From NCBI GenBank assembly GCA_031372065.1, contig JANMKN010000363.1, forward strand, positions 1-20,451: a stretch of 20,451 nucleotides of DNA. The letters run 5' to 3'. The DNA is from Abditibacteriaceae bacterium (GTDB taxonomy: Bacteria > Armatimonadota > Abditibacteriia > Abditibacteriales > Abditibacteriaceae). Position numbers and translations under genes: made by a program. This document shows, piece by piece, positions 1,372-19,674 of the stretch (position 1 is its first letter; the number at the start of each line of letters is the position of its first letter). The notes beneath the pieces were generated by a model. The model had not been told where the DNA came from. It made no database searches and worked only from the letters and a program-made list of their open reading frames with translations.

Positions 1372-4300
1372 ATGAAAAACCGCTTTTTCGTTTTTGTCGC
1401 TCTTATTCTTCTTACTGCCGCCAGCTACGCCAATACTTTGCGCGGCCTTGTGCTTTTGCCGGATGGCAAACCGGCAGTGGGTGCCGAAGTTGTGCTGATA
1501 AATGGCACTGGTGATGAAGACCAGCCGTTGGTGACTGCTATAGCGCAGGCAGATGGCACCTTTGCCATTAAAAGCACAGACCTTTCATTTGATACGCCGG
1601 AAGACAGTCACGATTTTGTAGCGCATTTATCTGGTTATGGCTTGACGTGGCGCAAAACGGTGCAACCCGGTATTTTCACGCTGCGCTTGGCCCCGTCCGG
1701 CCCGCGCGTTTTGCGGGCACTTGATGAAGCCGGAAAACCAATTGCCAATTTTCAAGCCGCGCTTTATTTTTTGCATCGCCCTCATTTGCCGTGGGACGTT
1801 TGGGATGTGCTGGATTTGCCTGCATCGCTGGCAGAAAACTGGGCTTTGCACGCGTCAAATAACCAAGTGCGTTTAGTGACCACTCCGGCGCACCTCACTG
1901 CGCGTTGGCGTGTTACAGCACCCGGTTTCGCGCCGCAAAGTGTGATGGATACGGGCGCTGCAAAAATTAACGTCAGGCTGCAACGCGCGGCCACAGTGCG
2001 CGGCAAAATTACTGGTGATGGTCCGTTGCCGCCGAACTTGAAAATCAACGCCTCGGTTTCCATTAAAACCGACCCGACGGGCTGGTTAGATGCTTGGGGA
2101 AAGACTATTCCTGTGACGCCGGAGGGCACATTTGAAATTGCTATGCTGCCCGGCAAGGCGAATTTTCGTATTGTGCGCGATTGGTTGTCGCCAAGACAAT
2201 TCGAGGGCGAAACGAGCGTGGAAATTAAAAGTGGCGCCATCCAGGACATCGCCATTTCGTCGCACGCCATGAAAACGGGACCTATTCTGGCGCGCGTGAT
2301 GGATGATAGCGGCGCGCCAGTGCGCGGCGGGCGCTTTGTCGTTGGTGACCCTGCATTTTTGCGCCTGCCACCAACGGGTGACGATGGCATGACTCGGTTC
2401 TTCGCGGCACCCGGAAAAATGGAATTATTCGCTGACCCGCCGCCCGCTGGCTACCTGCGATCTGCCACTGACCCGCAAATGGATCGGCAAATTACGATTC
2501 CTGCTGGCGATGAGGCATTTCAGTTGCCCGATTTAGTGTTGCCCCGCGCCGCGCGAATGCAAGTGCGTGTTGTGTCGCCCACTGGCGAACCGTTGCCCGC
2601 TGTGTGGGTAGAATCCAGCGAGGATGCCGGACTGATTTACGGACACGATACGCTGCTCACCGATGACGTTGGCATCGCGCGTTTTACGCGACTTGACGGC
2701 AAAAAAGCGCAATTCGTGCGGGCGCACACGCCGCAAGGCTTCAGCGCAACATTAGCCGTGCCGCTGCCCTTGCCAAACAACGTGACTTTGACTTTTCGCC
2801 CTACTTTTACGCGCCTTGTGGTGCGCATTATGGACGATGCCGGGCAGCCTCTTTCCCACACAACAGTGACAGCGATGGCCCGCGACATCAGCGCCAAGCG
2901 CGACAACGAACCGAGTCAAGATATTCAATTAAAAACCGATGCGACAGGGCACCTTTTTAGCCCGCCTTTGCCGCCCCAAATGAGCTATCGTCTCAGCCTT
3001 GCACCGCCCGGCGTCGTTCCGTTATTGACGGCATGGCGTCCGGCACGCGGCGCGCAAATCGTGTTCGGCACTGTTGTTTTGCAACGACTGAATGGCGTTT
3101 TACGCGGCACCGTGCAAGACGCGCGCGGCAAGGCGCTTCAAGGCGTGCGCATATGGAGTCTCAGTGCCGAACATCTCAATGCCGCGCGCAAAACTATCAG
3201 TGATGTGCGCGGCGCGTTCAGACTCGACAAAATGCCAAAGCGCACTTTGTTGGTCTTTGCGCAAGACGCTAAAGGTGAAATTGACTACGCTTATGCGCCG
3301 CCGAACGCGAAGCTGAATTTACAATTGGGACACCGAAAGCGCGTCGCGCAAACAACCACATCTCAAGAGCGGCGCGCTTTAGCAAGGCGCTTGTTAAAGG
3401 CCACAATGCGCGAGGTGCAAAACGCCAAGCCCGGCGAGGCACGCATTAATAATCTGGCATATTTGGCGGCTCAATTGGCGCGCTGCGATGCCAATCGCGC
3501 CCGCCAACTGGTGGCGAGTTACCCCGAAGCGCGCGAGTATTTGCTGGCTGAACAATTTAGCCAAGCCCTCGAACGCGAGCCGCCGAACGTGACGCGCGCT
3601 ATGGCTTGTTGGAACGCACTCAAACCTGCCGAATGGCGAACTTATCGGCTCACTAATGAGACATGGAAATTGGCCGCGCACCATCCCGACGCGGCGCGGC
3701 TGCTTTTGCCCCTCGCTTTGCGAACGGCGCGTAGCACGAGCGATATTCCCGCGCGCCTTTCTCAACTCACGACCTTGCTGGGAACCTTGGCGAGGCTCCA
3801 CGATTCCGGCGTGCCACTTTTGCGCGCTGAAATCGAACATCTCGTCATACTTTTGCCGGACGACAGCGCGAAACTGAGTGCGCGCTTGAATTTAGCAGGC
3901 AATTTGGCGTTTTCTGATGTCGATGTCGCGCTGACGATGATCGAACCGCTCTCTAAGAGCGCAGAGCGCGCTCGTGTTATGCGCCAAATTGCTCGCCGCT
4001 TGGCGCCGCGCGATGCAGAACGCGCGATTCGCTTGGTGCGCGAAGCCGTTGTCGAAAACGATTCGCAATCCTATCTCGAAGCAAGCGATGAAGCAATGGC
4101 GCTACTTTGCCCAGCCATCGCCAAAACCAACTTGCCGCGCGCCATCGCGCTGACCAATTCGCTGCCACCGGGTTATCCTCGTGCGCTGGCGCACTTTCTG
4201 TTGGCACAACAGCAAGCCTCAAAAAGCAAAAAGCAAGCGCGCATCCAATTGGAGGCGGCAATTTTAGAAGCATCAAATTCCAAAGGCGTCGCCGCGTTGG

Positions 4301-4809
4301 AAACTGATGCTGGTTGGCGCGCTCCTGAAGAAAATTACGTTGTCCGCTCACAAGATCAGGAAAATCTCGACAGCCTGCGCCTGCTGTTAGCAAGGGCAGC
4401 GCGACGCTGGAATTTGCCAGGCGCTTCTGAACTGACTTTGCGGGCTTTGGCGAGCAACGCCGTCGGCACATTTTCGGCGGGCGGCGGTGACTATGTCATC
4501 CAACAGGATGCCGCTGCTACGATGGCCGCCGCGCAGATTCTGCCCGCTTATGCGCGCGACTGGGTTAAGGTTTATTGGCCGCGCGTGAAAGCGCGCGATA
4601 AAAATATAGGTTTGTGGACGTTGACCAATATGATGGTGGCCGCTGCGTTTAGCGACACGAAATTGTGTGAGAAAATCTGGCGCGAAATGCCCGCCGGCCA
4701 ACGTGCTTATTGCACTGGGGAATTCTACGAAATGATGCAGGCAGGCGATGCGAGTTTCGAGCGCGCAGTGCGAACCCATCTGCATCTGAATTACGATGCG
4801 AATATGTAA
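1372..4809 (+). CDS. Large secreted protein: repeated carboxypeptidase-regulatory-like beta-sandwich domains plus an alpha-helical C-terminal half
   Basis: ATG 1372 gives a signal peptide (MKNRFFVFVALILLTAASYA). About six repeats of the type VxDxxGxP (e.g. LRGLVLLPDGKPAVGAEV, LARVMDDSGAPVRGG, VVRIMDDAGQPLSHTTV, LRGTVQDARGKALQGVRI). C-terminus is Ala/Leu/Arg-rich and looks helical. Confidence 0.75.
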   Translation: MKNRFFVFVALILLTAASYANTLRGLVLLPDGKPAVGAEVVLINGTGDEDQPLVTAIAQADGTFAIKSTDLSFDTPEDSHDFVAHLSGYGLTWRKTVQPGIFTLRLAPSGPRVLRALDEAGKPIANFQAALYFLHRPHLPWDVWDVLDLPASLAENWALHASNNQVRLVTTPAHLTARWRVTAPGFAPQSVMDTGAAKINVRLQRAATVRGKITGDGPLPPNLKINASVSIKTDPTGWLDAWGKTIPVTPEGTFEIAMLPGKANFRIVRDWLSPRQFEGETSVEIKSGAIQDIAISSHAMKTGPILARVMDDSGAPVRGGRFVVGDPAFLRLPPTGDDGMTRFFAAPGKMELFADPPPAGYLRSATDPQMDRQITIPAGDEAFQLPDLVLPRAARMQVRVVSPTGEPLPAVWVESSEDAGLIYGHDTLLTDDVGIARFTRLDGKKAQFVRAHTPQGFSATLAVPLPLPNNVTLTFRPTFTRLVVRIMDDAGQPLSHTTVTAMARDISAKRDNEPSQDIQLKTDATGHLFSPPLPPQMSYRLSLAPPGVVPLLTAWRPARGAQIVFGTVVLQRLNGVLRGTVQDARGKALQGVRIWSLSAEHLNAARKTISDVRGAFRLDKMPKRTLLVFAQDAKGEIDYAYAPPNAKLNLQLGHRKRVAQTTTSQERRALARRLLKATMREVQNAKPGEARINNLAYLAAQLARCDANRARQLVASYPEAREYLLAEQFSQALEREPPNVTRAMACWNALKPAEWRTYRLTNETWKLAAHHPDAARLLLPLALRTARSTSDIPARLSQLTTLLGTLARLHDSGVPLLRAEIEHLVILLPDDSAKLSARLNLAGNLAFSDVDVALTMIEPLSKSAERARVMRQIARRLAPRDAERAIRLVREAVVENDSQSYLEASDEAMALLCPAIAKTNLPRAIALTNSLPPGYPRALAHFLLAQQQASKSKKQARIQLEAAILEASNSKGVAALETDAGWRAPEENYVVRSQDQENLDSLRLLLARAARRWNLPGASELTLRALASNAVGTFSAGGGDYVIQQDAAATMAAAQILPAYARDWVKVYWPRVKARDKNIGLWTLTNMMVAAAFSDTKLCEKIWREMPAGQRAYCTGEFYEMMQAGDASFERAVRTHLHLNYDANM

Positions 4810-5876: not shown

Positions 5877-5922
5877 AATCCGCCAGATAGCGGATGGAGT
5901 TCTTCGCAAGACAGAACACACT
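5877..5922 (+). promoter_or_regulatory. Palindromic box 1 plus -10-like hexamer, upstream of pckG
   Basis: AATCCGCCAGATAGCGGATG (5877-5896), 20-nt gap, CACACT (5917-5922). Confidence 0.8.
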
Positions 5923-5928
5923 CCTCCC

Positions 5929-7797
5929 ATGATGAATGATGAACCGATCAATCAACAGGGAAGTGTCGCTGTGAACACGCCGATTTATGTCCGCCATGCC
6001 GCGTTGTCTGAGTGGGTGCGCCAGATGGCCGAGCTTTGCCAGCCCGATGCGGTTTATTGGTGCGATGGCTCGCCCGAAGAATACGAGCGCCTGTGCAATC
6101 AACTGGTCGAAAGTGGAACGTTTATTCGTTTGAATGACAAAGTGCGCCCACATAGCTTTTTGGCGCGCTCCGACCCCGACGATGTGGCGCGCGTCGAAGA
6201 CCGCACTTTCATTTGCAGCGTCAGCAAAACCGATGCGGGGCCGACCAACATTTGGATGGCGCCCAGAGAAATGAAAGAAACGCTGACGCATCTTTTTAAC
6301 GGCTGCATGAAAGGGCGCACGATGTATGTAGTGCCGTTTTCGATGGGGCCGTTGGGGTCGCCGATGGCACACATTGGCGTTGAAATCACTGATTCGCCTT
6401 ATGTTGTGGTCAACATGAAAATCATGACGCGCATGGGCCGCGCGGTTTTCGATGTGTTGGGCGAAAAAGGCGATTATATTCCGTGTATGCACTCAATTGG
6501 AATGCCCCTTGAAACCGGCCAGCAGGATGTGGCGTGGCCGTGCAACAAAGACAAAAAATACATTGTGCATTTCCCCGAAGGGCGCGCGATTTGGAGCTAT
6601 GGAAGTGGCTATGGCGGCAACGCGCTTTTAGGAAAGAAATGCTTCGCCCTTCGTATCGCTTCCAGCATGGCGCGCGATGAAGGCTGGCTGGCCGAGCATA
6701 TGCTGATTTTAGGCGTGGAATCGCCTGAAGGCGAAAAGACTTATGTGGCGGCAGCCTTTCCGTCAGCCTGCGGCAAAACCAACTTCGCGATGCTGATTCC
6801 ACCCAAAGCGATGGAAGGCTGGAAAGTGACGACAGTTGGCGATGACATCGCGTGGATTAAACCCGGCGCCGATGGAAAAATTTATGCCATTAATCCCGAA
6901 GCCGGTTACTTTGGCGTCGCACCCGGCACCTCTTACGCCACCAACCCGAACGCGATGGATTCCATGCGCGCCAACACCATCTTCACCAACGTCGCGCTCA
7001 CGGACGACGGTGATGTGTGGTGGGAAGGTATGACGGCAGAGAAGCCGGCGCACCTGATTGACTGGACAAGCGGGGAATGGACGCCTGATTGCGGGCGCAA
7101 AGCCGCGCATCCCAACGCGCGTTTCACGGCGCCGGCCAGCCAATGCCCGTGCGTTGATGCCGAAGCAGAAAACCCGCGTGGCGTGCCGATTAAAGCCTTT
7201 ATTTTCGGCGGACGGCGCGGCACTTTAATGCCACTGGTTTATCAAGCGTTCAACTGGACTTATGGCGTCTACTTAGCGGCCACCATAGGCAGTGAAACTA
7301 CGGCTGCCGCAGCGGGCGCCGTGGGCCATGTGCGGCGCGACCCGTTTGCCATGCTGCCGTTTTGCGGCTATCACATGGGCGATTATTTCAACCACTGGCT
7401 GCAATTTGGCCGAACCATTCCCAATCCGCCGCGCATTTTTGCCGTGAATTGGTTTCGCACCGATGACGAAGGTAAATTCCTCTGGCCCGGCTTCGGCGAG
7501 AATATGCGCGTGCTGAAATGGATCGTCGAGCGCGCCAACGGCCACGCGGTTAGCATCGAAGGCCCGATTGGTTGGATGCCGCGTTACGAGGACTTAGACT
7601 GGCGCGGACTGGAAGATTTCAAGAAATGCCAGTTCAACGAGCTGATGTCGGTTGATCGCGTCGAATGGAATGCGGAAATCCTTTCGCACGAAGAATTGTT
7701 CATCAAGCTCTACGACCGTTTGCCGAAGGAACTGCTCTCAATCCGCGACCTGACTCTTTCGAGCTTGTGGCGTTCGCCGGAACACTGGGAAATATAA
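5929..7797 (+). CDS. pckG: Phosphoenolpyruvate carboxykinase (GTP)
   Basis: Signatures [106 protein letters not shown]. Start 5929 or 5932 preferred over 5794. Confidence 0.97.
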
Positions 7798-9378
7798 ATG
7801 CCCGAAAACCAAGCGGCTCGTGAGCAACTGGCGGCAATTTTAGAAGCTTCGGACGACGCCATTATCGGCATCACGCCGGAGGGCATCGTTTCCGGTTGGA
7901 GCCGCAGCGCCGGGGAAATCTTTGGCTACAGCGCGACTGAAATTATTGGGCAGCCTCTGTCGCTGTTGTCGCCGCGTGATTTGGTGCGAGAAGGCCGCGA
8001 AATCATGCGCCAAATCGCGGCTGGCGAAGCAGTTGGGCGCTTTGAAACCGTGCGCGTGGCCAAAGATGGCAGCCGGCTGGACGTGCGAATGTCGCTCACG
8101 CCACTGCGCGACGAATCCGGCGCGGTTTCCGGCGCTGTAGCTCTCGTGCGCGACATCTCGGCACGCCGCGAAGCCGAACGCGCTGTGCGAGAAATGGAAG
8201 CCGGCGCCCATAACCGGGCTGTCGTTTTAGAAACGGCCAATCGTGTCGCGTTGGATATTCTCACCAGCCGCACCGGCGCCGAAGCTCTGCGCCACATCGC
8301 CGACGCGGCGCGCGTTTTAGTCGGCGCTCGTTATGCGGCATTGGGCGTGGCGCGTGAGCATGGCGGCGGCTTGAAACAGTTCATCGCCGTAGGTCTCACG
8401 CCTGAGGAAGAAGCCGCCATCGGCTCGTTGCCGCGCGGGCATGGCATTTTAGGACTGCTGCTCGAACGCCGTGAGCCGTTGCGAATAGATAAAATCGGCG
8501 CCCATCCCGCTTCGGTCGGTTTTCCGGCCAATCATCCGCCGATGGATTCGTTTTTGGGCGTGCCGATTCGGCGCGGCGAAGTGATTTTAGGCAGTCTTTA
8601 TCTCACCAACAAGCAAGGCGGCGGCTCGTTCACCGAAGCCGACGAGGCTGCGGTTCAGGCTTTGGGCGCGCACGCGGCCATTGCCATCTACAACTCGCAA
8701 TTGCTGGCGCAGCAGCGTTCTCTGGTTTCCAGCCTCATCACCGCGCAGGAAGACGAGCATCGCGCCGTCGCTTACGATTTGCACGACGGCCTAACGCAAT
8801 ATGTGATGGCGTCACACGCGCATTTGGAAGCCTTCAAGCGCGCCCACGCGACCGGAAAAGCCGAAAAAGCCGCACGCGAATTAGAACAGGGCTTGCAGTT
8901 CTTGAAGGAAGCTGTGGTCGAATCGCGCCGACTGGTCAACGGTCTGCGCCTGCTGGCATTGGACGACTTGGGCTTAGCCGGCGCGCTGGAGCAACTGCTG
9001 CACGATGAAAAAAACCGCGCCGGCTGGGAAGACGCCGGCTTAATTCATAATCTTGGCGATGCGCGCTTCGACCGCACGCTGGAAACCGGCGTTTATCGCA
9101 TCGCGCAGGAAGCCCTGACCAACGCGCGCCGCCATGCCGAAACGCCGCGCGTAGAAATGAAACTGTTGCTGGGCGATGGGCAATTGCTGCTCGAAGCGCG
9201 CGATTGGGGTCAGGGCTTCAATACGAAAGAGCGCGTTGGCGCGCCCGGCCATGCTGGTTTGCAGGGCATCATCGAGCGCGTGCATTTATTAAGCGGAACG
9301 CTGGAACTGCATTCGATGCCCGGCATCGGCACCACGCTACGCGCCCGCTTTCCGGCGTCGCCCGGAGAAAGTGACTAA
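7798..9378 (+). CDS. Soluble PAS-GAF-HisKA_3 sensor histidine kinase with DosS/DevS-like heme GAF
   Basis: PAS domain (ILEASDDAIIG...AGEIFGYSATEIIGQP...KDGSR). GAF with HPASVGFPANHPPMDSFLGVPI and GSLYLT. H-box AYDLHDGLTQ, N-box RIAQEALTNARRHA, DWGQGF, GLQGIIERV. No transmembrane segment. Confidence 0.92.
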   Translation: MPENQAAREQLAAILEASDDAIIGITPEGIVSGWSRSAGEIFGYSATEIIGQPLSLLSPRDLVREGREIMRQIAAGEAVGRFETVRVAKDGSRLDVRMSLTPLRDESGAVSGAVALVRDISARREAERAVREMEAGAHNRAVVLETANRVALDILTSRTGAEALRHIADAARVLVGARYAALGVAREHGGGLKQFIAVGLTPEEEAAIGSLPRGHGILGLLLERREPLRIDKIGAHPASVGFPANHPPMDSFLGVPIRRGEVILGSLYLTNKQGGGSFTEADEAAVQALGAHAAIAIYNSQLLAQQRSLVSSLITAQEDEHRAVAYDLHDGLTQYVMASHAHLEAFKRAHATGKAEKAARELEQGLQFLKEAVVESRRLVNGLRLLALDDLGLAGALEQLLHDEKNRAGWEDAGLIHNLGDARFDRTLETGVYRIAQEALTNARRHAETPRVEMKLLLGDGQLLLEARDWGQGFNTKERVGAPGHAGLQGIIERVHLLSGTLELHSMPGIGTTLRARFPASPGESD

Positions 9379-9380
9379 AA

Positions 9381-10052
9381 ATGAGCGAAACCAAGCTGTC
9401 TGAAATCACCGTGCTGCTGGTTGACGATCACGCCATCTGGCGCGGCGGCGTGAAAAGTATGTTAGACGACACCGAGTTCCGCGTCGTCGGCGAAGCCTCG
9501 TCCGGGCCGGAAGGTGTCGAAAAAGTGCGCGAATTGCAGCCGCGTCTGGTGTTATTGGACATCCGCATGGCCGGCGGCGATGGCTTGGATGCTTTGGGTG
9601 CCATTCGCGCCGAAAATGCCGCGACTTCAGTCGTCATGCTGACAACTTACGACAACCCAACTTATATGGCTCGCGCGGTTGCAGGCGGCGCGTCGGGTTA
9701 CGTTCTCAAAGGTGTCGGGCGCGACGAATTGTTAGACGCGCTCCGCAAAGTTGCGGGTGGCGAAATGCTGCTCGCAGCCAAAGATTTAACGCGCATTTTG
9801 CGCGGCGTCAGCGAAAGCGCGGCGCTCGCCAAAGATTTGATTCAGCCTTTGTCCGAGCGCGAAATCGAAGTGTTACGTCTTCTTTCAACCGGTCTGTCGA
9901 ATAAGGAGATCGCGCCCTTGCTTTTCATTTCGGAAAGCACCATCAAAACCCATGTCGAGCACATCATTCGCAAACTCGGTGTCGCCGACCGCGTGCAGGC
10001 GGCCGTTTGGGCCGCGCGGCATGGGCTGATAGCCACAGAATCCGCCATTTAG
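9381..10052 (+). CDS. NarL/DosR-family response regulator (REC + LuxR-type HTH)
   Basis: Receiver motifs VLLVDDH, LLDIRM, VMLTTY, GYVLK. HTH LSEREIEVLRLLSTGLSNKEIAPLLFISESTIKTHVEHIIRKLG. Starts 2 nt after the kinase stop. Confidence 0.95.
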   Translation: MSETKLSEITVLLVDDHAIWRGGVKSMLDDTEFRVVGEASSGPEGVEKVRELQPRLVLLDIRMAGGDGLDALGAIRAENAATSVVMLTTYDNPTYMARAVAGGASGYVLKGVGRDELLDALRKVAGGEMLLAAKDLTRILRGVSESAALAKDLIQPLSEREIEVLRLLSTGLSNKEIAPLLFISESTIKTHVEHIIRKLGVADRVQAAVWAARHGLIATESAI

Positions 10053-10084
10053 CGGATGCTCCCGGCCTCGCGCTTATTCATACT
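10039..10084 (+). promoter_or_regulatory. Palindromic box 2 plus -10-like hexamer, upstream of the cupin-cupin-4Fe4S-Rieske unit
   Basis: AATCCGCCATTTAGCGGATG (10039-10058), 20-nt gap, CATACT (10079-10084). Confidence 0.8.
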
Positions 10085-10115
10085 TTTCCGAAGATGCCGG
10101 AAATTCGGAGGAGCC

Positions 10116-10517
10116 ATGAATTCAAACCCAACACGTCTGCGCGAACATCCTAACGCCCGCTTCGCTGCGGCAGAACACGTTCTTAACCTTGCAGAAAGTG
10201 TCGCGCAGTTACGCGCGGAAGAACATTCCGCACAGTGCGGCCATCGGCAAATTACGCTTTACCACCACGCGCCGCTCACGATGGTTTTGTTTGCCTTCGA
10301 GCCTGAGGGCGAACTGCGCGATCACGCCACAGCCGGTCTTGTGACGATTCAGGCGCTCGACGGCGCCCTGACGGTGCAAACCCCCGAACAAACCTACCAA
10401 CTCACGGCGGGCATGATTGTCGTTCTCGCGCCTAAAGTGCGCCATAGCGTGCGTGCCGCGCAGGCGAGTTCGATGCTCTTGACGGTGCATCTTCAAGTGG
10501 AGTCGCCGGACAAATGA
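10116..10517 (+). CDS. Cupin-domain protein
   Basis: GGAGGAG RBS before ATG 10116. Cupin motifs VLFAFEPEGELRDHATAGLVTIQALDG and LTAGMIVVLAPKVRHSVRA. Confidence 0.85.
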   Translation: MNSNPTRLREHPNARFAAAEHVLNLAESVAQLRAEEHSAQCGHRQITLYHHAPLTMVLFAFEPEGELRDHATAGLVTIQALDGALTVQTPEQTYQLTAGMIVVLAPKVRHSVRAAQASSMLLTVHLQVESPDK

Positions 10518-10876
10518 GTAGCGCAGCGGATATTCTCATTGACCTGCCGGCCTTAAGCGACGCGGCAGCGGGTAACGGGCCTGTGTGGGGCTGCGCGCTG
10601 GATGACCTCAATCTCACGCTGCTGGCGTGGGAATCAGGCGGACAGGTGGCGCCGCACGTTAACAGCGAGTTGGATGTGGTTTTCTTTGGCGTCACGGGCG
10701 AAGGCGAAGTGACTATCAACGACCAAATTTTCACACTTTCTCCCGGAAAACTGCTGCTTATCGCCAAAGGCAGCGAACGCGCTGTTCGCGGCTTGAGCGA
10801 CAAATTTTCTTATCTCAGCGTGCATCGCCGCCGCGCCGGCTTGATGCCGACGTCGGTCAAACGTGCGGCCCGGTAA
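10514..10876 (+). CDS. Cupin-domain protein
   Basis: ATGA overlap with the previous gene. VAPHVNSELDVVFFGVTGEGEVTI...LSPGKLLLIAKGSERAV. Confidence 0.82.
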   Translation: MSSAADILIDLPALSDAAAGNGPVWGCALDDLNLTLLAWESGGQVAPHVNSELDVVFFGVTGEGEVTINDQIFTLSPGKLLLIAKGSERAVRGLSDKFSYLSVHRRRAGLMPTSVKRAAR

Positions 10877-10885
10877 AGGTGGCTT

Positions 10886-11482
10886 ATGCCTGAAAACGTC
10901 TTCATCATTGACCCATCGCGCTGCATTGGCTGTCAGGCGTGCGTGCAAGGCTGCGCCGAATGCGACACCCATCGCGGCACTTCGATGATTCATCTGGAGT
11001 TCGTGGATCGCGCACAATCGGTGCAGACCACGCCGCAGGTTTGTATGCACTGCGAGAACCCGACTTGCGCGCAGGTTTGCCCCGCCGATGCCATTAAGCA
11101 AACGCCGGATGGCGTGGTGCAAAGCTCGCTTAAACCGCGCTGTATCGGCTGCTCGAATTGCGTTTTAGCGTGTCCGTTCGGCGTGCCCAAATACTTCGTC
11201 GAAATTGACCAGATGCAAAAGTGCGATATGTGCTACGACCGCACCAGCGTCGGCAAGCGTCCGATGTGCGCGACGGTTTGCCCGTCCGAGGCGCTGTATT
11301 ACGGCCCGCGCGAGGAATGGGAAAAACGGCGGCGCGGCAAGCCGGTCAACGAATGGCGCTTTGGAAAACAGCTTGTCAAAACCGGCGTTTATATGGTCAT
11401 GCCGGACGATACCGAACGCTTCGAGCAACGCGTGGACGTGCTTCTTTCGAGCATTAAACCCGCGCAAAAGGAGAAGCCATGA
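10886..11482 (+). CDS. Four-cluster [4Fe-4S] electron-transfer subunit (DmsB/FdnH/NrfC-like)
   Basis: Four Cys groups: [44 protein letters not shown]...PMCATVCP. Confidence 0.95.
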
Positions 11483-11997
11483 ACGATGCCGATGCTCCCA
11501 AATGGCGCAAAGATTTCCCTATTGAGCGCAGCGTGGACGATTATGTCACGCGCCGTGAGTTCACCAAGTTCCTGATCATGATTTCCGGCGCGACGGCGCT
11601 CGGTAACGGCTATTTTGCTTTGGCGAAGCTGCAAAGCGAGCGCGTCGCCCTGCACCCGCCGCAGGCCATCGCAGGCGCTGATGAATTGCAACATGACGCC
11701 GTAAAATTGTTTCGCTATCCGACGGAAAACGACCCGGCGCTGCTCATTCGATTGCCCAACGGCGAACACGTCGCTTATCTGCAACGCTGCACGCATCTGA
11801 CGTGCCCGGTGATGTATTCGCAAGCGCGCGGACGCATCGAATGTCCGTGTCACAACGGCGCCTTCGACGCCGCAACGGGCAGTGTTCTCGAAGGCCCGCC
11901 GCCGCGCCCTTTGCCGCGCATCGCTTTGCGCGTCGAGAACGGGCAAGTCTTCGCCATCGGAGTGGAAAACGGTGAAGAACCACACGCCCAATCATAA
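11479..11997 (+). CDS. Rieske [2Fe-2S] protein with twin-arginine-like motif and N-terminal hydrophobic helix
   Basis: CTHLTC and CPCHNGAFD boxes, GPPPRPL. N-terminal VTRREF followed by a hydrophobic stretch. ATGA overlap with the 4Fe-4S gene. Confidence 0.93.
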
Positions 11998-12041
11998 TCC
12001 GCCGTTTAGCGGATGCCCGGCGCGCACGAATTTTCCAAAAT
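11996..12041 (+). promoter_or_regulatory. Palindromic box 3 plus -10-like hexamer, upstream of the small membrane protein-narK-narI-like-Mo enzyme unit
   Basis: AATCCGCCGTTTAGCGGATG (11996-12015), 20-nt gap, CAAAAT (12036-12041). Confidence 0.8.
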
Positions 12042-12070
12042 GCTTCTCGTTAATCCATAAGTTGAACGCT

Positions 12071-12328
12071 ATGAAAGACCAGAATCCGCGACTTGCTCGT
12101 TTAGAGCAAAAACTTCAGGGCGTGCAAGCCTTACTCATCGTGGTGCTGCTGGTGCTGCTCATCCAGTTGTGGCTCATCACCATCGCGCTCGAAGAGTATT
12201 TGGCGGCGCGCCATCAACTGGCGGTGCCGACGTTTCTCGCGTCGCTGGCGTGCTTTGGCTTCAACCTGTGGCTACTCAAGTATTTGCGCGATTTGGATCG
12301 CGCCGGAAAGGATCGTGATGCCTCGTGA
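12071..12328 (+). CDS. Small two-helix membrane protein (resembles DUF6755 family)
   Basis: ATG 12071, 85 aa, two hydrophobic helices (LLIVVLLVLLIQLWLITIALEEYL; AVPTFLASLACFGFNLWLL). GTGA overlap with narK. The family name is from recollection only. Confidence 0.75.
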   Translation: MKDQNPRLARLEQKLQGVQALLIVVLLVLLIQLWLITIALEEYLAARHQLAVPTFLASLACFGFNLWLLKYLRDLDRAGKDRDAS

Positions 12329-13521
12329 CTGACATTTCTGCAAAATCTGGTTCAAGCAAAGCACTGGCGCTTTCGACGATTTCGTTTGCCGTCGCGTTTG
12401 CCGTTTGGGGCATGATTTCGCCGCTCGCCAAAACGTTTCAAACCACGTTTCATCTGAGCGAGCAGCAAGCGTGGCTTTTAATCGCCGTGCCGGTTTTGCT
12501 CGGCTCGATCATGCGCCTGCCGATGGGAATGTTGGCGGATCGCTTCGGAGGACGCATCGTTTTCGGTGCGCTGCTGATTTTTATCGCGCTGCCGGCCTTC
12601 ATGCTCAGTGTTTCTCACTCGTTTGAAGCGTTCTTGTTTTGGGGCTTGTTACTGGGCATGGCGGGCAGTTCGTTCGCCGTCGGCGTGACGTTTACCTCGA
12701 AGTGGTTTTCGCCCGAAAAGCAAGGTATGGCGCTCGGCGTTTTCGGCGCCGGCAACATCGGGCAAAGTTTGGCGCTGTTTTTCGTGCCGGTTTTATCGGG
12801 ACGATTCGGCTGGCAAATCACTTATCAAATCTTCGCCGCCGTCGCGTTGCTCTGGGGCATCGTTTTCCTGATGTTCGCCCGCAACGCGCCGGTTGTTACG
12901 CAGCCGCGCAGTTTCAGTGCGATGCTCAAAGTGCTGTGGGAAAAGCCGCTTTCGTGGCTGCTGGCGCTGTTTTACTTCGTGACCTTCGGCGGTTTCGTGG
13001 CGCTGAGCATTGGCCTGCCGAAACTGCTGCAAGAAATATTCGGCCTCACCAAAGAAGACGCCGGATTGCGCGTGGCGGGCTTTGTGTTGCTGGCAACGAT
13101 CATGCGACCTTTAGGCGGCGCTCTCAGCGATAAAATCGGCGGCGCGCGTTTGCTCATGGGCGTGTTCGCGGGCGCCGGAATTTTAGCGCTTGGCATGACT
13201 TTCGACCAAATGCTGCCTTTCACGCTGGGCGCGCTTGGCGTGGCGTCGTGTATCGGTTTGGGTAATGGCGCGGTGTTTAAACTGGTGCCGCAATTCTTTC
13301 CGCAAGACACCGGCACCGTGACGGGATTAGTCGGCGCGATGGGCGGGTTGGGCGGCTTTTTCCCGCCGCTGATTTTAGGCATCATCAAAACGCGCACCGG
13401 CGCTTACGATTTAGGTTTTGTTCTGCTCGCCGGCTTCTGTTTTGTGTGCCTGATTTTGAATTACGTCGTGTTCCTGAAGCGTCCCAGCGGTAAATCAAGC
13501 GTCGCAGCGGCGACTTCTTAA
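12325..13521 (+). CDS. narK: MFS nitrate/nitrite porter (NarK/NasA family)
   Basis: About 12 hydrophobic segments. Two intramembrane Arg (IMRLPMG, IMRPLGG). Nitrate-signature regions WFSPEKQGMALGVFGAGNIG and GTVTGLVGAMGGLGGFF. GNGAVFKLVP. Confidence 0.93.
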   Translation: MTDISAKSGSSKALALSTISFAVAFAVWGMISPLAKTFQTTFHLSEQQAWLLIAVPVLLGSIMRLPMGMLADRFGGRIVFGALLIFIALPAFMLSVSHSFEAFLFWGLLLGMAGSSFAVGVTFTSKWFSPEKQGMALGVFGAGNIGQSLALFFVPVLSGRFGWQITYQIFAAVALLWGIVFLMFARNAPVVTQPRSFSAMLKVLWEKPLSWLLALFYFVTFGGFVALSIGLPKLLQEIFGLTKEDAGLRVAGFVLLATIMRPLGGALSDKIGGARLLMGVFAGAGILALGMTFDQMLPFTLGALGVASCIGLGNGAVFKLVPQFFPQDTGTVTGLVGAMGGLGGFFPPLILGIIKTRTGAYDLGFVLLAGFCFVCLILNYVVFLKRPSGKSSVAAATS

Positions 13522-13527
13522 ACGACC

Positions 13528-14571
13528 ATGAGCCATCAACTCGACCGTAAAGCGGCGCTGACGGGAATTGCCGCCGCATTGCTGCTTATCGCGGCGATTT
13601 ATGTCGGCTCGCGCGGTTTTGCACACATTGACCCGGCGCTGATTGCTTACACCAGCGCCAGTGTTTTTGCGGCGTTCGGCATTGTTTATCGTTATGCGAT
13701 TTGGCTGCAAAAGCCGCCGACCAATATGTATTGGCATCGTGGCTGGCAATTGTTTTTTCGGCCCAAAGATTTGCCGAAAAACGTGCTGTGGCTCCTTCGC
13801 TTGTTCCTTAACACCTTCGTTTTTCAAACTTTCATCGAAAAACGCAGCCACGTCCGCTGGATGGCCCATTTTCTGATTTCATGGGGCTGCATCGTGGCGT
13901 GTCTGGTGACGTTTCCTCTGGTGTGGGGCTGGGTTCATTTCGACGCCGATCCCACAAATCCCATTGCTTATCAGGCGCACGTTTTCGGCTTTCACGCCGG
14001 AACGTTTCCCGCCGCCTCGCTGGTCGGGTGGATCACGTTTCACATTCTCGATTTTTGCGCCGTCGCGATTATTCTCGGTATTGCCTTCGCCTTCAAGCGC
14101 CGTATGTATGAGCCGGGCGCCCTGACCGTGCAAACCTTCGCGATGGACTTTTTGCCGCTGATTCTGCTGATTTCGGTTTGCATCACCGGCCTGATGCTAA
14201 CCATCAGCGCGATTTGGATGCACGGCCATTCATACAGCTTTTTAGCGATTTTGCACGCTTTTAGCGTCATCGTGACGATGCTTTATATTCCGTTCGGCAA
14301 GTTTTTTCATATCTTTCAGCGCCCGGCGAATTTAGGTGTGGCGTTTTATAAACGCGAAGGCGCAGAAGGCGAGCGCGCTTTGTGCAAACGCTGCGGAAGC
14401 GACTTCGCCTCGCAAATGCACATTGACGATTTGAAAACCGTGCTTGACCAGTTGGGCCTCGATCAACACCTCGAAGACGGAGCGCATTATCAGGAAATCT
14501 GCCCGCAGTGCCGTCGCCGCCTGCTGGCCTTGAACCAACTCGAAGCCATCGGCGGGCCGGGGTTTTTGTGA
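13528..14571 (+). CDS. NarI-like polytopic membrane protein (putative cytochrome b anchor) with C-terminal CxxC...CxxC domain
   Basis: Multiple TM segments with His in RWMAHFL, ILHAF and YIPFGKFFHIFQRP (NarI-like PFxKxxH). DFLPLILL...TGL segment. C-terminal CKRC and CPQC. Confidence 0.75.
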   Translation: MSHQLDRKAALTGIAAALLLIAAIYVGSRGFAHIDPALIAYTSASVFAAFGIVYRYAIWLQKPPTNMYWHRGWQLFFRPKDLPKNVLWLLRLFLNTFVFQTFIEKRSHVRWMAHFLISWGCIVACLVTFPLVWGWVHFDADPTNPIAYQAHVFGFHAGTFPAASLVGWITFHILDFCAVAIILGIAFAFKRRMYEPGALTVQTFAMDFLPLILLISVCITGLMLTISAIWMHGHSYSFLAILHAFSVIVTMLYIPFGKFFHIFQRPANLGVAFYKREGAEGERALCKRCGSDFASQMHIDDLKTVLDQLGLDQHLEDGAHYQEICPQCRRRLLALNQLEAIGGPGFL

Positions 14572-14597
14572 GAGATTTGAGAGATTGAGGATTATCC

Positions 14598-16832
14598 ATG
14601 TCGAATCCACCGCTGCCAATTGAGCAGCTTATCGAAGAGTTTGGGCCGCACCCGCAATACACGCCGCCGGGCGGCTGGAAGGGCGATAATCGGCCCGATA
14701 AAATCGTCGCCACGCATTGCTGCTTTTGCGGACAGCAGTGCGGCATCAATTTGAAAGTCAAGGACAACAAAGTCATCGGCTTCGAGCCGCGCGAAGAGTT
14801 TCCCTTCAATAAGGGCAAGCTGTGTCCGAAGGGCATCAAGCGTTATATGCAGAACGAGCATCCCGACCGGCTGCTGCATCCGCTCAAACGCACCGACAAT
14901 GGCTTTGCGCGCATCAGTTGGGAAGAAGCCCTCGATGCCACCGTTAAAGGCATTCGCTCGGTGCAGCAGAAATACGGCAAGGATTCGTTTGCGGTTTTGT
15001 CCGGCTCGTCGCTGACCAACGAAAAGTGCTATCTGATGGGCAAGTTTGCGCGCGTGGGCATCGGCACAGCGAACATTGATTACAACGGTCGTTTGTGCAT
15101 GGCCAGCGCGGCGGGAGCCAATAAAAAATGCTTCGGCATTGACCGCGCGGCCAACTCGTGGGAGGACATTCCGCTCGCCGACGTGATTCTCGTCACCGGC
15201 TCGAATGTCGCCGAATGCGCGCCGATTACAACGGATTATATCTGGCGGGCGCGCGACCGGGGCGCGAAATTGATCATGATTGACCCGCGCGTTACGCCGC
15301 TTGCGCGCACCGCCGATTTGCATATTCCGGTGCGTCCGGGCGGCGATTCGGCCTTGATGAACGGCATTTTGCACGTCGTCATCGAGCGCGGCTGGATTGA
15401 TCGTGATTTCATCGCGCAGCACACAGCCAATTGGGACGACGTGGCCGCGATGGTCAAGAAATACACGCCCGAAGTGGCTGGTGAACTGAGCGGCGTTGAC
15501 CCGCAACTCATCATCAAAGCCGCCGAAATGTGGGGGCCGGCCAAAACGAGCTTTCTTTTACACGCGCGCGGCATTGAGCATCACACCAAAGGCGTCGAAA
15601 ACGTGATGACGTGCATCAATTTGGTTTTAGCGACGGGCCGCATCGGGCGCCCCGGCTGCGGCTACGCGACGATTACCGGGCAGGGCAACGGGCAGGGCGG
15701 GCGCGAACACGGCCAGAAATGCGACCAACTGCCCGGCTTCCGCGACATCGAAGACCCCAAAGCGCGTGAGCATATTTGCAAAATCTGGGAGATTGTTGAT
15801 GCTGAGCTGCCGCACAAAGGCCAGAGCGCCGAAGACCTCGTGCAAATGATGCACGCCGGAGAAATCAAAGGCTTGTTTTCGATTTGCTTTAATCCCGTCG
15901 TCTCGCTGCCGGACGCCAATTTCACCAAAGCAGCGGTCGGAAAACTGGAAGATTATTCGATTATTGAATTTTTCATGAGCGAAACCGCGCAGCACGCCGA
16001 CATCATTGTGCCGGGCAGCCTGCACGAGGAAGACGAGGGCACTGTTACCAGCGCCGAAGGCCGCGTGATTAAAATTAATCGCGCCGTTGAGCCGCCCGGT
16101 GAAGCGCGCCGCGATTGGGAAATTATTTGCGATTTGGGCCGTCGTTTGGGCCGCGAAAAGCACTTCGCGTTCACCAAAGTCGAAGACATTTTTAATGAAT
16201 TGCGCGTTGCCAGCAAAGGCGGCACAGCGGATTACTTCGGCATCACTTACGAGAAAATTGACCGACAGCAAGGCGTTTTCTGGCCTTGTCCCGAACTCGA
16301 TCATCCCGGCACGCCGCGCTTGTTTGAAGACAATAAATTTTACACGCCCGACAAAAAGGCGCATTTTCAAGCCGTGGAATTTCGCCCGCCCGCCGAAGTG
16401 CCGGATGAGGAATATCCGGTTATTCTCACGACGGGGCGTGTCATTAGCCAATATCTGAGCGGCACGCAAACGCGGCGCATTGGCGGTTTGCTCGATCAAT
16501 ATCCTGAGCCTTTGTGCGAGATGCACCCGAAACTCGCGCAAAAACTCGGCGTGCAAAACGGCGAATTGGTGAAAGTCGAAAGCCGGCGCGGGCAAGTGAC
16601 GCTCAAAGCGCAAGTTGTGACTACGATTCGAGAAGACACGGTTTTCATTCCGTATCATTGGGCGAACGAACAGTCGGCCAACCTGCTGACGATTCGCGCG
16701 CTCGACCCGATGTCACGCATTCCCGAATATAAAGTCTGCGCGGTGCGCGTGAGCAAAGCGCAAGCGGGTGCGGCGCCAATGAAGCAATCGCTGGTGCCCG
16801 ATTCCTTGGAAGACGCACAACAAAAATCATGA
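14598..16832 (+). CDS. Mo-bisPGD oxidoreductase, Nas/Nap-type nitrate reductase catalytic subunit (no export signal)
   Basis: N-terminal [4Fe-4S] motif [10 protein letters not shown]...GKLCPKG. Active site NGRLCMASA (Cys167 followed by Met, as in NapA/NasA; FDH has His there). [12 protein letters not shown]-terminal LTTGR...[24 protein letters not shown]. Confidence 0.88.
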
Positions 16833-16837
16833 AGCAC

Positions 16838-16883
16838 AACCCGTCATTTGGCCGATGAGACAGGCGCAGCGTGGTGGCAGACT
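16838..16883 (+). promoter_or_regulatory. Degenerate palindromic box 4 plus extended -10-like element, upstream of ric
   Basis: AACCCGTCATTTGGCCGATG (16838-16857; 3 differences from consensus), 20-nt gap, TGG-CAGACT (hexamer 16878-16883). Confidence 0.68.
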
Positions 16884-16907
16884 GCATTTCAATTGAGGGG
16901 AAATCTG

Positions 16908-17714
16908 ATGAATATTTTTGCATTGAAAAAGAGTCATGCCGCCGGACAACTTATCGTGCTTGGCGGGCAGGGCACTATGAGTTGCGGCGAAACCGTCGCG
17001 CAGATGGTGGCCGAGCGTCCGGCGCGGGCGCGCGTTTTTGAAAAATGGGGCATTGCTTATTGCTGCGGCCAGCGCACGGTGGCGCAGGCGTGCCGCGAGC
17101 AGAATGTGGACACCGAAGCCGTTTTGTCGGATTTGCGCGTCTGCGATGAGAGGATGGGTAAGTTGTCGGGCGATAACGATATTGATTGGTCGCAGGCTTC
17201 GCTTTGCGAGCAGATTGAGGCCATGGTGCGCGGGCCTCATCAATACTTACGCGATGAACTGCCGCGTTTGTCTTATTTGGTTGAGCGCGTCGCTGACGAT
17301 CACGGCGCGGCGTTCTCCGAATTTTGGGAGATGCAGGGGCTTTTCGAAGATGTGAAACAAGAAATCGAGAGTCACATTTTGAGAGAAGAAACTGCCTTGT
17401 TTCCGCTTTTGAAATGGCTCGAAACCTCAGGCGCGGCGCCCGTAGAAACCGAAAATGACCGGAGTAATTCTATTAGCCTGATGCATTCGATTTATCATCA
17501 GCACTCGGAAAATACTATGCTGCGCGCCTCATTGAAAATACTGCGCGGTTGGATTAGCAATTTTCAGCCGCCGGTCGGCGTTTGCAACACCTATCGCGTG
17601 TTGGCGCATGATTTAGGCGAACTTGAAACCACCATCGCGCGCCATCTTAGCATTGAAGAAGACGTAATCTTTCCGCGTGCGCTGGCATTGGCTGCACCTG
17701 ACGAAACAGCGTAA
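16908..17714 (+). CDS. ric: RIC/YtfE/ScdA-like di-iron protein (ScdA_N + hemerythrin domain)
   Basis: GAGGGG RBS before ATG 16908. ARVFEKWGIAYCCGQRTV N-terminal domain. Ligand motifs HQYLRDELPRL, HILREETALFP, HQH, HLSIEEDVIFP. Confidence 0.85.
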   Translation: MNIFALKKSHAAGQLIVLGGQGTMSCGETVAQMVAERPARARVFEKWGIAYCCGQRTVAQACREQNVDTEAVLSDLRVCDERMGKLSGDNDIDWSQASLCEQIEAMVRGPHQYLRDELPRLSYLVERVADDHGAAFSEFWEMQGLFEDVKQEIESHILREETALFPLLKWLETSGAAPVETENDRSNSISLMHSIYHQHSENTMLRASLKILRGWISNFQPPVGVCNTYRVLAHDLGELETTIARHLSIEEDVIFPRALALAAPDETA

Positions 17715-17793
17715 TAAAGTTTTTTACGGCATTTTTCTGACAAATACCGTTTCCCATTGAATAACTGATTTCGGTTGTGCGTAGCTCCCGACG

Positions 17794-17839
17794 AATCCGC
17801 CAAATGGCGGATGCCGTTTCGCGGCAAATGAGCCACAAT
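17794..17839 (+). promoter_or_regulatory. Palindromic box 5 (perfect 8-2-8 core) plus -10-like hexamer, upstream of the AspT/YidE transporter
   Basis: AATCCGCCAAATGGCGGATG (17794-17813; core ATCCGCCA-aa-TGGCGGAT), 20-nt gap, CACAAT (17834-17839). Confidence 0.8.
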
Positions 17840-17869: not shown

Positions 17870-19531
17870 ATGGATTGGCTAAAAGATTTATTTACCGAAG
17901 ATTCCGTCGCGCACGCGGTTTTAGTGCTGGGATTAGTCGCGGTTTGCGGGCTGGGCTTGGGTAGTGTTCAGATCAAAGGCATCGGACTCGGCATCGCGGG
18001 CGTGCTGTTCGCGGGCTTGGCTTTCGGACATTTTGGCCTCACGATTTCGCACGAAGTTTTGGATTTCGCGCGTGAATTTGGCCTGATTCTTTTCGTTTAT
18101 GCCATCGGCGTGCAAGTCGGGCCGGGCTTTTTTAGCAGCTTGCGGCGACAAGGCTTGGCGCTCAACGCGCTGGCGCTCAGCATTGTGATTTGCGGCGTCC
18201 TTGTCACTTTGGCGGTGAGTCGTTTTGGCGGCGTGCCCATGCCCGTGGCCGCCGGTTTGTTTTCGGGCGGCACCACCAACACGCCGTCGCTGGCCGCCGC
18301 GCAGCAGGCATTGCAAGAGTTGCCGGGCGCTTCCGAAAACGTGCAAAAAATGCCCGGTTTGGGCTACGCAGTGGCCTATCCGTTCGGCGTGTTGGGCATT
18401 ATTCTCACCATGCTGATGGCGCGGCGCGCGTTTCGCGTGGATATGGCGCGTGAAGTCGAAGAATCGTTGCCGCAAAACGAAACGGCTCCGCTGGAAACGC
18501 TGAATATTGGAGTCACCAACGAGAATTTAAACGGCCTGCCGATTCGCAAATTGCCGCGCCTCAAAGATTCGGGTGTAGTGGTTTCGCGCGTGCAGCACGA
18601 CGGCGAAATTCTCGTCGCGCGCGGCGATACGCGCATCGAAAGCGGCGACGTTTTGTTAGCCGTCGGGACAAAAGAAGAATTGGAAGCGTTCCGGCTCATT
18701 GTCGGCGAAAAATCGTCGCTCGACTTACGCCAAGCGCTGGGTGAAGTCACGACGCGCAGCTTAATCGTGACACAGCGCGCCATTTTGGGCAAAAGCATTC
18801 ATCAGTTGAACTGGGCCGGGCGCTTTGGCGTGGTCGTCACGCGCATCAATCGCGCCGGAGTGGAATTGACGCCGCGCTCAAATTTGTATCTGCAATTTGG
18901 CGACAGATTGTTAGCCGTCGGCTCGGCGGAGGCGTTAACAGAAGCCGCACGCGAAATCGGCGACTCGGCGAAAGAATTGGAGCATCCTTCGATGGCGGCG
19001 ATATTTCTCGGCATCGCATTCGGCGTGCTGCTCGGCAGCTTTCCGATTGCCCTTCCGGGCTTTCCCGCGCCGGTGAAATTAGGTTTGGCGGGCGGGCCGC
19101 TTCTTGCGGCGATTTTGCTCAGTCGCGTGGGGCGCATCGGGCCTTTGGTGTGGCATATGCCGCCCGCAGCGGGCGCGGCGTTGCGCGAAACGGGCATTAT
19201 TTTGTTTCTGGCGTGCGTCGGCCTCAAATCCGGCGGCAATTTTGTGCCGACGCTGTTGCAAGGCGATGGCTGGCATTGGATGGCTTTGGCGACCCTGATT
19301 ACCATAACTCCGCTGGTTTTGGCGGCTTTTGTGGCGCGTTTTGCCTTAAAAATGCCGTTTCCGGCCCTGTGCGGCCTTTTGGCAGGCAGCATGACCGACC
19401 CGCCGGCTTTGGCCTTCGCGCACAGCGTCACCGACTCCGACGCGCCCGCCGTCACTTACGCGACGGTTTACCCACTGGTGATGATCGCGCGCATCGTAGC
19501 GGCGCAGGTTTTAGTGATTTTCTTCCGGTGA
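17870..19531 (+). CDS. AspT/YidE/YbjL (AAEx family) transporter with two TrkA-C domains
   Basis: GIGLGIAGVLFAGL, EFGLILFVYAIGVQVGPGFFSSLR, GGTTNTPSLAAAQQ, GYAVAYPFGV, two soluble TrkA-C repeats, KLGLAGGPLL, LAGSMTDPPALAFA, YATVYPL. Alternative TTG start at 17855. Confidence 0.93.
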   Translation: MDWLKDLFTEDSVAHAVLVLGLVAVCGLGLGSVQIKGIGLGIAGVLFAGLAFGHFGLTISHEVLDFAREFGLILFVYAIGVQVGPGFFSSLRRQGLALNALALSIVICGVLVTLAVSRFGGVPMPVAAGLFSGGTTNTPSLAAAQQALQELPGASENVQKMPGLGYAVAYPFGVLGIILTMLMARRAFRVDMAREVEESLPQNETAPLETLNIGVTNENLNGLPIRKLPRLKDSGVVVSRVQHDGEILVARGDTRIESGDVLLAVGTKEELEAFRLIVGEKSSLDLRQALGEVTTRSLIVTQRAILGKSIHQLNWAGRFGVVVTRINRAGVELTPRSNLYLQFGDRLLAVGSAEALTEAAREIGDSAKELEHPSMAAIFLGIAFGVLLGSFPIALPGFPAPVKLGLAGGPLLAAILLSRVGRIGPLVWHMPPAAGAALRETGIILFLACVGLKSGGNFVPTLLQGDGWHWMALATLITITPLVLAAFVARFALKMPFPALCGLLAGSMTDPPALAFAHSVTDSDAPAVTYATVYPLVMIARIVAAQVLVIFFR

Positions 19532-19539
19532 AGGCTTTA

Positions 19540-19658
19540 AAACACAAAGAACACAAAGGATTTCACAAAGAAACACAAAGGTTTTGTGATGTGGTTCTTG
19601 ATGTAGCCTTTTTTGAATCTTTGTGCCCTTTGTGAAATCCTTTGTGTTCTTTGTGTTT
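19540..19658. repeat. Long inverted repeat built from CACAAAG units
   Basis: 19540-19570 (AAACACAAAGAACACAAAGGATTTCACAAAG) is the exact reverse complement of 19628-19658 (31 bp). Each arm has a fourth, inner CACAAAG unit. TTAA at both outer ends. Confidence 0.9.
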
Positions 19659-19674
19659 AAGATTGGAGCGAGCC

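Follow-up and report, generated by a model that had tools for sequence, protein, structure and literature searches.

The closest described relatives of the system discussed here are DosS/DosT-DosR (DosRS, also DevRS) of mycobacteria, the dormancy system of tuberculosis, OsdKR of Streptomyces coelicolor and NarX/NarQ-NarL of Escherichia coli, for which we draw on published accounts. The heme ligands of DosS are the proximal His149 and the distal Tyr171, Lys179 of its partner DosR reads bases, and whether O2 or redox state is the signal is still argued (PMC4082495). The DosR promoters described all carry two to four boxes, at least two of which, 21 bp apart, are needed, with the proximal box at -42.5 (PMC3177182); the DosR receiver has an atypical (beta-alpha)4 fold (PMC13486717). 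OsdR shares 61% identity with DevR and recognizes the DevR box (PMC5069765). For NarL, one dimer on one palindrome near -43.5 suffices at yeaR, and the C-terminal domain of the RNA polymerase alpha subunit (alphaCTD) binds the A/T centre (PMC10853779). Here we describe a putative counterpart in an Abditibacteriaceae bacterium: an 18-bp palindromic box that occurs five times in a 20,451-bp stretch of DNA, together with the adjacent genes for a sensor kinase (7798..9378, + strand) and a NarL/LuxR-family response regulator (9381..10052, + strand), whose closest relatives are also from Abditibacteriaceae. The stretch, hereafter the window, is one whole contig (JANMKN010000363.1) of a 6.14-Mb genome that is 94% complete (GCA_031372065.1).

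We think it very likely that this palindrome serves the two-component system beside it as an activator site, and that the whole forms a low-oxygen, probably also NO- or CO-responsive, switch; that the box is an activator site of this particular regulator we hold with higher confidence than the exact gas sensed. The box core is ATCCGCCA-WW-TGGCGGAT, and its oriented consensus is cacA-ATCCGCCA-TT-TVGCGGAT-g. An earlier note on this DNA had listed five 20-bp palindromes in intergenic gaps, 32-57 nt before likely start codons. All five 20-mers are present where it placed them, and their distances to the likely ATG codons (32, 57, 55, 50 and 56 nt) agree with that range. Three details change: the palindrome itself is 18 bp long, its flanking 5′ A and 3′ G being non-complementary; site 2 covers the last codons and the stop codon of the regulator gene, and site 3 covers the stop codon of the Rieske gene, so that neither lies wholly between genes; and pckA probably starts at GTG 5971, where its closest orthologue (in locus L021) begins, rather than at ATG 5929, which coincides with the predicted transcription start of the box 1 promoter.

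All five cores read on the + strand. Box 1 (5878..5895) is predicted to drive pckA, the kinase and the regulator, and the same box stands before pckA in L021; because these three genes abut (7797/7798 and 9378/9381), it heads the regulator’s own operon, implying autoregulation. Box 2 (10040..10057) would drive the cupin-cupin-FeS-Rieske unit, and box 3 (11997..12014) would be an internal promoter for the DUF6755, narK, narI-like and nasC-like genes. Box 4 (16839..16856), the weakest with 3 mismatches, would drive ric, and matching boxes lie ahead of ric in L021 and L023. Box 5 (17795..17812), a perfect palindrome, would drive the yidE-like transporter gene and possibly the CoA transferase gene too. 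With up to 3 mismatches allowed, the core ATCCGCCANNTGGCGGAT occurs 6 times in the window, where 0.19 would be expected, and 6 were reached in none of 100 shuffles; the additional match, at 8005, falls within the kinase gene and lacks a -10 element at the conserved spacing.

That conserved spacing, unremarked in the earlier note, is what places the boxes within promoters: in all five, a CAnnnT hexamer follows the 18-mer after exactly 21 nt. By spacing, we assign the -10 elements CACACT (5917..5922, with a predicted start at ~5929), CATACT (10079..10084), CAAAAT (12036..12041), CAGACT (16878..16883, with TG ahead of the hexamer) and CACAAT (17834..17839), all on the + strand, to boxes 1 to 5. 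At the 84 sites from other genomes that had enough flank, a -10-like hexamer, most commonly TATAAT, was found at 21 nt in 58 and at 22 nt in 22, and every other offset from 0 to 59 scored only 0-8. A wrong-spacing control of the combined box and -10 model gave 13-16 matches versus 12 at the true spacing; strong boxes pass that model alone, so the spacing claim rests on the 84-site count and not on this control. With the usual -12 to -7 placement of the hexamer, the box centre would fall near -42.5, a class II activator position, so that the promoter-linked operators of the earlier note can be refined to putative activator sites at a fixed spacing (21 or 22 nt in 80 of the 84). The proximal end of the box overlaps the -35 region, giving ATG where TTG is expected, an overlap that may account for the preference at the 3′ flank for G (57 of 82 sites) over the palindromic T. 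A sigma-70 consensus scan calls none of the five window promoters. A conserved second box at offset 21 was not found: none of 138 sites had at least 10 of 16 matches there and the mean of 4.65 equals background, although very degenerate sites could escape such a count. An apparent upstream secondary box at offset 16 was rejected, the peak being overlap with the box’s own first two bases. At six loci (L033, L042, L049, L057, L058 and L073) divergent promoters carry back-to-back boxes, and each of these boxes is followed 21-22 nt on by a -10 of its own.

The case for a gas as the signal comes from the kinase. Pfam recognizes PAS, GAF and kinase (HisKA_3/HATPase) domains only, and the GAF domain matches the heme domains of DosT and DosS with E values from 3.5e-37 (2vzw) to 1.4e-34. 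H246 and Y268 correspond to His149 and Tyr171 of DosS (His147 and Tyr169 of DosT), with the same 22-residue spacing, and Gly183 corresponds to Gly85 of DosT, unlike Glu87 of DosS. The kinase also occurs in a cultured host, Capsulimonas corticalis (WP_125206051.1). The His-Tyr motif is present in 120 of the 120 top kinase homologues, and the heme-ligand His is kept in 56 of the 66 GAF domains encoded beside the regulator, with 3 of the other 10 alignments stopping short. The alternative that survives best accepts that the regulator binds the box and supposes that the kinase responds instead to nitrate, to redox poise or to some signal perceived through its PAS domain. In its favor, the ligand of that PAS domain is unknown, the heme His is missing in L028, L079, L082, L085 and L066/L084, and NarL is the nearest solved relative of the regulator. 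We nevertheless judge it unlikely, given that the window kinase, like most of its homologues, retains the His, the Tyr and the DosT-type Gly, that the domain content is unlike that of the membrane-bound NarX and NarQ (whose models match only the end of the kinase, far below cut-off), and that the targets form a low-oxygen set, with a NasC-like gene close to the regulator at no more than 2 of the 80 loci. The regulon thus includes the nitrate reductase block only occasionally.

The box also travels with the regulator. A matrix built on 8 sites from this genome, applied to the surroundings of orthologous regulators (80 loci, 1.12 Mb), found 86 sites in 46 loci, compared with 0, 2 and 0 in three shuffles. 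The position weight matrix scan of genome and orthologous loci that the earlier note had suggested therefore finds the box tracking orthologues of the 9381-10052 regulator, and it does so across Armatimonadota/Abditibacteriota. Among 151 genomes of the phylum that are at least 90% complete, 18 have an orthologue at E below 1e-60. The combined box and -10 pattern gave 71 matches in 15 of these 18 and 25 matches in 22 of the 133 genomes without the regulator; at least 3 matches occurred in 10 of the 18 versus none of the 133. The backwards pattern yielded a total of 3 matches, a level that the background among genomes without the regulator exceeds. In an earlier run on 41 genomes, 9 of 13 with the regulator had matches versus 2 of 28 without, and a strict palindrome allowing 1 mismatch, which proved too strict a search, matched 7 of the 41, 3 of them without the regulator.

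Covariation between the recognition helix and the box is a stronger link between the two than this co-occurrence. Residue 186 of the regulator, which aligns with Lys179 of DosR (mapped via the orthologue in L086), is Ser in most orthologues. At loci with Ser, Cys or Ala, box base 15 is A in 0 of 116 sites; at Gly186 loci it is A in 16 of 23 sites (9 of 12 loci), accompanied by the symmetric T4 in 7 of 22; and at Asn186 loci all 4 sites have G4-C5 and T15. The same base-15 contrast separates paralogues within four single genomes (L026/L057 vs L060, L056 vs L086, L040 vs L087, and L024 vs L028). The paralogue clade formed by L028, L079, L082 and L085, whose kinase lacks the heme His, has the regulator helix ENT[IV]KTHVVH and boxes of the form ATCGCYCA..TRGGTGAT, and is possibly a separate circuit with another signal; boxes of N186/V193 paralogues are ATCGCCCA-type.

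These variants bear directly on a second alternative, in which the box is an activator site read by some other factor, of the Crp/Fnr family or another NarL-family protein, and the two-component genes are mere members of the regulon. Candidates exist: Crp/Fnr proteins are described as classic class II activators of low-oxygen genes (PMC10853779); HTH_Crp_2 gives 6 matches in this genome, of which 4 exceed the cut-off; two further NarL-type regulators are encoded on contigs C265 and C302; and the kinase operon is itself preceded by boxes. However, inside one genome the box variant changes with the helix residue carried by the neighboring paralogue, a pattern that a single genome-wide factor would not produce; genomes with multiple sites were found only where the regulator is; and seven loci with distant NarL-type regulators (36-43% identity, L014-L020, ~3.6 kb each) have no site. 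We therefore regard another reader of the box as quite improbable. Least credible of all, and very hard to reconcile with the data, is that the box is a repressor site or that the palindromes are repeats of the repetitive extragenic palindromic (REP) kind or terminator hairpins: although the box covers the -35 region, where bound protein could block polymerase, and a simple terminator scan accepts site 1 on its reverse strand, none of the five promoters is called by the sigma-70 consensus scan, the spacing of box to -10 is fixed within 1 nt as that of repressor sites normally is not, terminator-like matches in the region are at chance (36 vs 30.1 expected), and a REP, which the earlier note had raised as an outcome that would overturn its proposal, is not what a genome scan returned, with just 8 close copies in 6.1 Mb (1, 2 and 5 at 0, 1 and 2 mismatches, 4 of the 8 in the window), too few for a dispersed repeat, and flanking sequence unrelated from copy to copy.

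Several observations weigh against our interpretation of the box as the activator site of an oxygen-responsive regulator. Even under a wider model, 16 of the 80 loci have no site, and 3 of the 18 genomes with the regulator have no pattern match (G011, G039 and G106, the gene in G106 having an internal stop). The pattern used for the co-occurrence counts was drawn from loci overlapping some of the counted genomes, kin among those genomes are not independent, and the search for the regulator scored just 19 candidates in each genome. A15 is missing in 3 of the 12 Gly loci with sites, one same-genome Gly/Ser pair (L033 vs L090) has no base-15 contrast, and the Gly-A15 cases occupy only ~2-3 distinct regions of a quickly built tree that is partly unresolved and long-branched, so that the covariation is supportive rather than proof. 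Finally, the signal may be redox instead of O2, as in the continuing debate over DosS. Taken together, the fixed activator position, the travel with orthologues and the helix covariation still favor the earlier note’s proposal that the box is the operator of the 9381-10052 regulator.

The conserved ligands suggest how such a switch would operate: the GAF domain would bind heme, and the kinase would be off with O2 bound and would autophosphorylate when O2 falls or when NO or CO binds. Judging from family and gene order, the kinase would then phosphorylate Asp60 of the regulator’s receiver, and the regulator would dimerize. The comparative data strongly support the next step, in which one dimer would occupy one 18-bp box near -42.5, over a poor -35 region, and recruit the housekeeping RNA polymerase. 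The predicted outcome is induction of the system’s own operon (positive feedback) and of a low-oxygen survival set; the target list itself is observed and here comprises pckA, a membrane-wired nitrate reductase with NarK, Ric, YidE, two universal stress protein (USP) operons and Acg nitroreductases.

Part of that list lies outside the window. We trained a box and -10 model on 78 sites of other genomes, excluding the closest relative; in this genome its eight top-ranking sites (scores 29.6-41.3) are the five in the window plus C13:6827, C294:3988 and C165:4392. The next scores are 23.6, for the reverse reading of site 5, and 20.9. The C294 and C165 boxes head USP genes, the latter followed by an Acg-family oxidoreductase gene (NF047509 above cut-off), and the C13 box heads a single-domain receiver gene and then an Acg fragment at the contig end. 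The regulon that the earlier note called local thus extends genome-wide, to three further sites of equal quality, and is conserved across the phylum. A second narK-nasC pair with a NirB-like gene (C263:6074-10972, L135) has no box ahead of it, the best score on that contig being 11.2, inside a downstream gene; the NirB-like gene, at 482 aa versus ~800 model positions, is perhaps split or shortened. There is also no box before a second GTP-dependent PEP carboxykinase (PEPCK) gene (C285:12554-14380) that is 83% identical to the window copy; a third, 49% identical, is on C64.

Across loci, we scanned the first genes behind 77 boxes, using automatic start calls: 19 encode USPs, 5 Ric, 5 zinc-dependent alcohol dehydrogenases, 3 CydA of cytochrome bd, 3 BON proteins, 3 PEPCK, 3 the kinase itself, 2 nitroreductases and 2 CDF proteins, with 15 singletons and 17 without a family. 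Hsp20, a P-type ATPase and Cox1 are also among the products of these first genes. In several Armatimonadota loci the first gene behind the box, often right after the regulator, encodes a small Cys-rich protein with a CDG..C ... HFCP.C pattern (L057:10798-10989, L043:1748-1981, L053:10740-11015, L042:18405-18710, L048:4036-4311 and L055:10705-11022), apparently fused to Ric in L035 (N-terminal part of 6354-7361). It had no Pfam match, and the four instances scanned against NCBIfam had none there.

Every gene of the window from 5971 through the contig end is on the + strand. The first, pckA (5971..7797), encodes a GTP-dependent PEPCK (NF003253, 1016 bits vs a cut-off of 504). The regulator’s recognition helix reads ESTIKTHVEH (S186, K189, T190, E193). 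Downstream of it are genes for two small cupin proteins (10116-10517 and 10514-10876; Cupin_2, weak and below cut-off) and, by profile matches, a four-cluster ferredoxin (10886-11482), a Rieske protein (11479-11997) and a DUF6755 protein (12071-12328). Then follow a NarK-like MFS transporter (12325-13521) and, beyond a QmoC/NarI-like membrane protein (13528-14571, a weak match with E 7.6e-07), a NasC-like molybdoenzyme with an RLCMASA motif (14598-16832); NarK and NasC are the best-matching models for these two, both below their curated cut-offs. The Ric/YtfE/ScdA-like di-iron protein (16908..17714; Fe-S repair, NO response) has ScdA_N and hemerythrin domains and scores 149 bits with TIGR03652, below the cut-off of 205. 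A YidE/AspT-family transporter (17870..19531; NF003007 above cut-off) precedes an acetyl-CoA hydrolase/transferase, recognized by profile match, that is truncated by the contig end (19675..20451) and has its own box directly ahead of it in L035. Between these last two lies a long inverted-repeat element (19534-19662) that could influence read-through; with another at 966-1142, it is one of two in the window, for which BLAST finds ~50 (966-1142) and ~22 (19534-19662) related places in the genome. In the closest relative, L021, inspection by eye places a flavin-reductase-like frame (10675-11160) between the regulator and ric, and the cupin and nitrate reductase genes are upstream on the opposite strand, the block thus being rearranged within the family. 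Outside the regulon, window 1372-4809 encodes a probably exported 1145-aa protein; it carries carboxypeptidase-regulatory-like repeats, and its C-terminal half is helical and belongs to no family.

Armatimonadota are little-studied soil and freshwater bacteria, and for a phylum with almost no regulatory biology the window offers a complete predicted circuit of sensor, regulator, operator and targets. The box could serve as a search string for low-oxygen genes in the phylum, including small proteins without a known family. We are evenly divided on a broader picture, in which Armatimonadota and Abditibacteriota would run a dormancy-type program parallel to that of DosR, with a DosT-type heme sensor wired to a different, single-box regulator of the NarL family; paralogue circuits would be split by one helix change that rewrites one operator base pair, one clade also losing the heme ligand and answering another signal; and here the Rieske-containing NasC-type nitrate reductase would be oxygen-controlled, apart from the unboxed assimilatory narK-nasC-nirB locus. 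If so, such separate control would mark the Rieske-containing enzyme as respiratory or redox-balancing. The regulatory data argue, from an independent side, against a simply assimilatory role for the NasC-Rieske-NarI operon. The paralogue series would be a natural one-residue, one-base specificity switch, and a DosT heme sensor with a DosR-like target set outside Actinobacteria, joined to a different DNA reader, would bear on the origin of dormancy regulons. In the open-licence literature we found no description of this operator/regulator system (subscription papers and regulon databases lay outside the search) and no paper linking Armatimonadota with DosR; a text search with the motif string had primer and siRNA papers among the matches listed.

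How far, then, does the system resemble those already described? NarL is the best solved match to the regulator (E 7e-41), and the alphaCTD-contact residue Lys174 is kept as K175. However, NarL V189 and K192, which we take to be its base readers, are replaced by T190 and E193, Arg178 is replaced by Pro179, and the NCBIfam NarL score is 178 versus a cut-off of 250. As the earlier note had stated, the box is also unlike the E. coli 7-2-7 site (TAACCAAT-type), and a predicted soluble heme GAF sensor differs from the membrane-bound periplasmic nitrate sensors NarX and NarQ. Sensor type, box and the unreached NarL cut-off together exclude membership in NarXL.

With OsdKR the system shares a DosT-like kinase and a clustered regulon of USP, zinc dehydrogenase, hemerythrin protein and nitrate reductase genes, although OsdR is close to DevR and the window regulator less so. 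The inner core of the OsdR box recurs among 143 sites (G5 in 128, C6 in 119, C7 in 135, G13 in 142 and C14 in 97), whereas the outer arms do not (0, 2 and 17 of 143 at positions 2-4, and 7, 0 and 2 at positions 15-17). The earlier statement that the motif fails to match the DosR consensus accordingly holds for the outer arms, while the inner core does resemble the OsdR/DosR box.

The likeness to DosRS extends from the sensor to the targets: a predicted heme GAF domain with proximal His, distal Tyr and DosT-type Gly (here by sequence only), a HisKA_3-type kinase paired with a NarL-family regulator, an 18-bp palindromic box at -42.5 (a position that here follows from the -10 spacing), and USPs, the Acg family (NF047509 above cut-off), a NarK-like transporter and Hsp20 among the targets. 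In the half-site, G5 and C7 are kept and no other base coincides. On the other side, the sensor has PAS and one GAF instead of tandem GAF-A/GAF-B, Ser186/Lys189/Thr190 replace the base-reading Lys179/Lys182/Asn183, the GGGACT half-site is absent and ATCCGCCA takes its place, no conserved tandem second box accompanies the first as in the two to four of DosR promoters, and DosR, from a different phylum, ranks no higher than sixth among the solved matches to the regulator (E 1.6e-31). The PAS-GAF layout, the S/K/T for K/K/N replacement, the lack of GGGACT and the lack of a conserved tandem box rule out membership in DosRS. By the features compared, the system is thus predicted to work like DosRS and OsdKR without being a member of DosRS.

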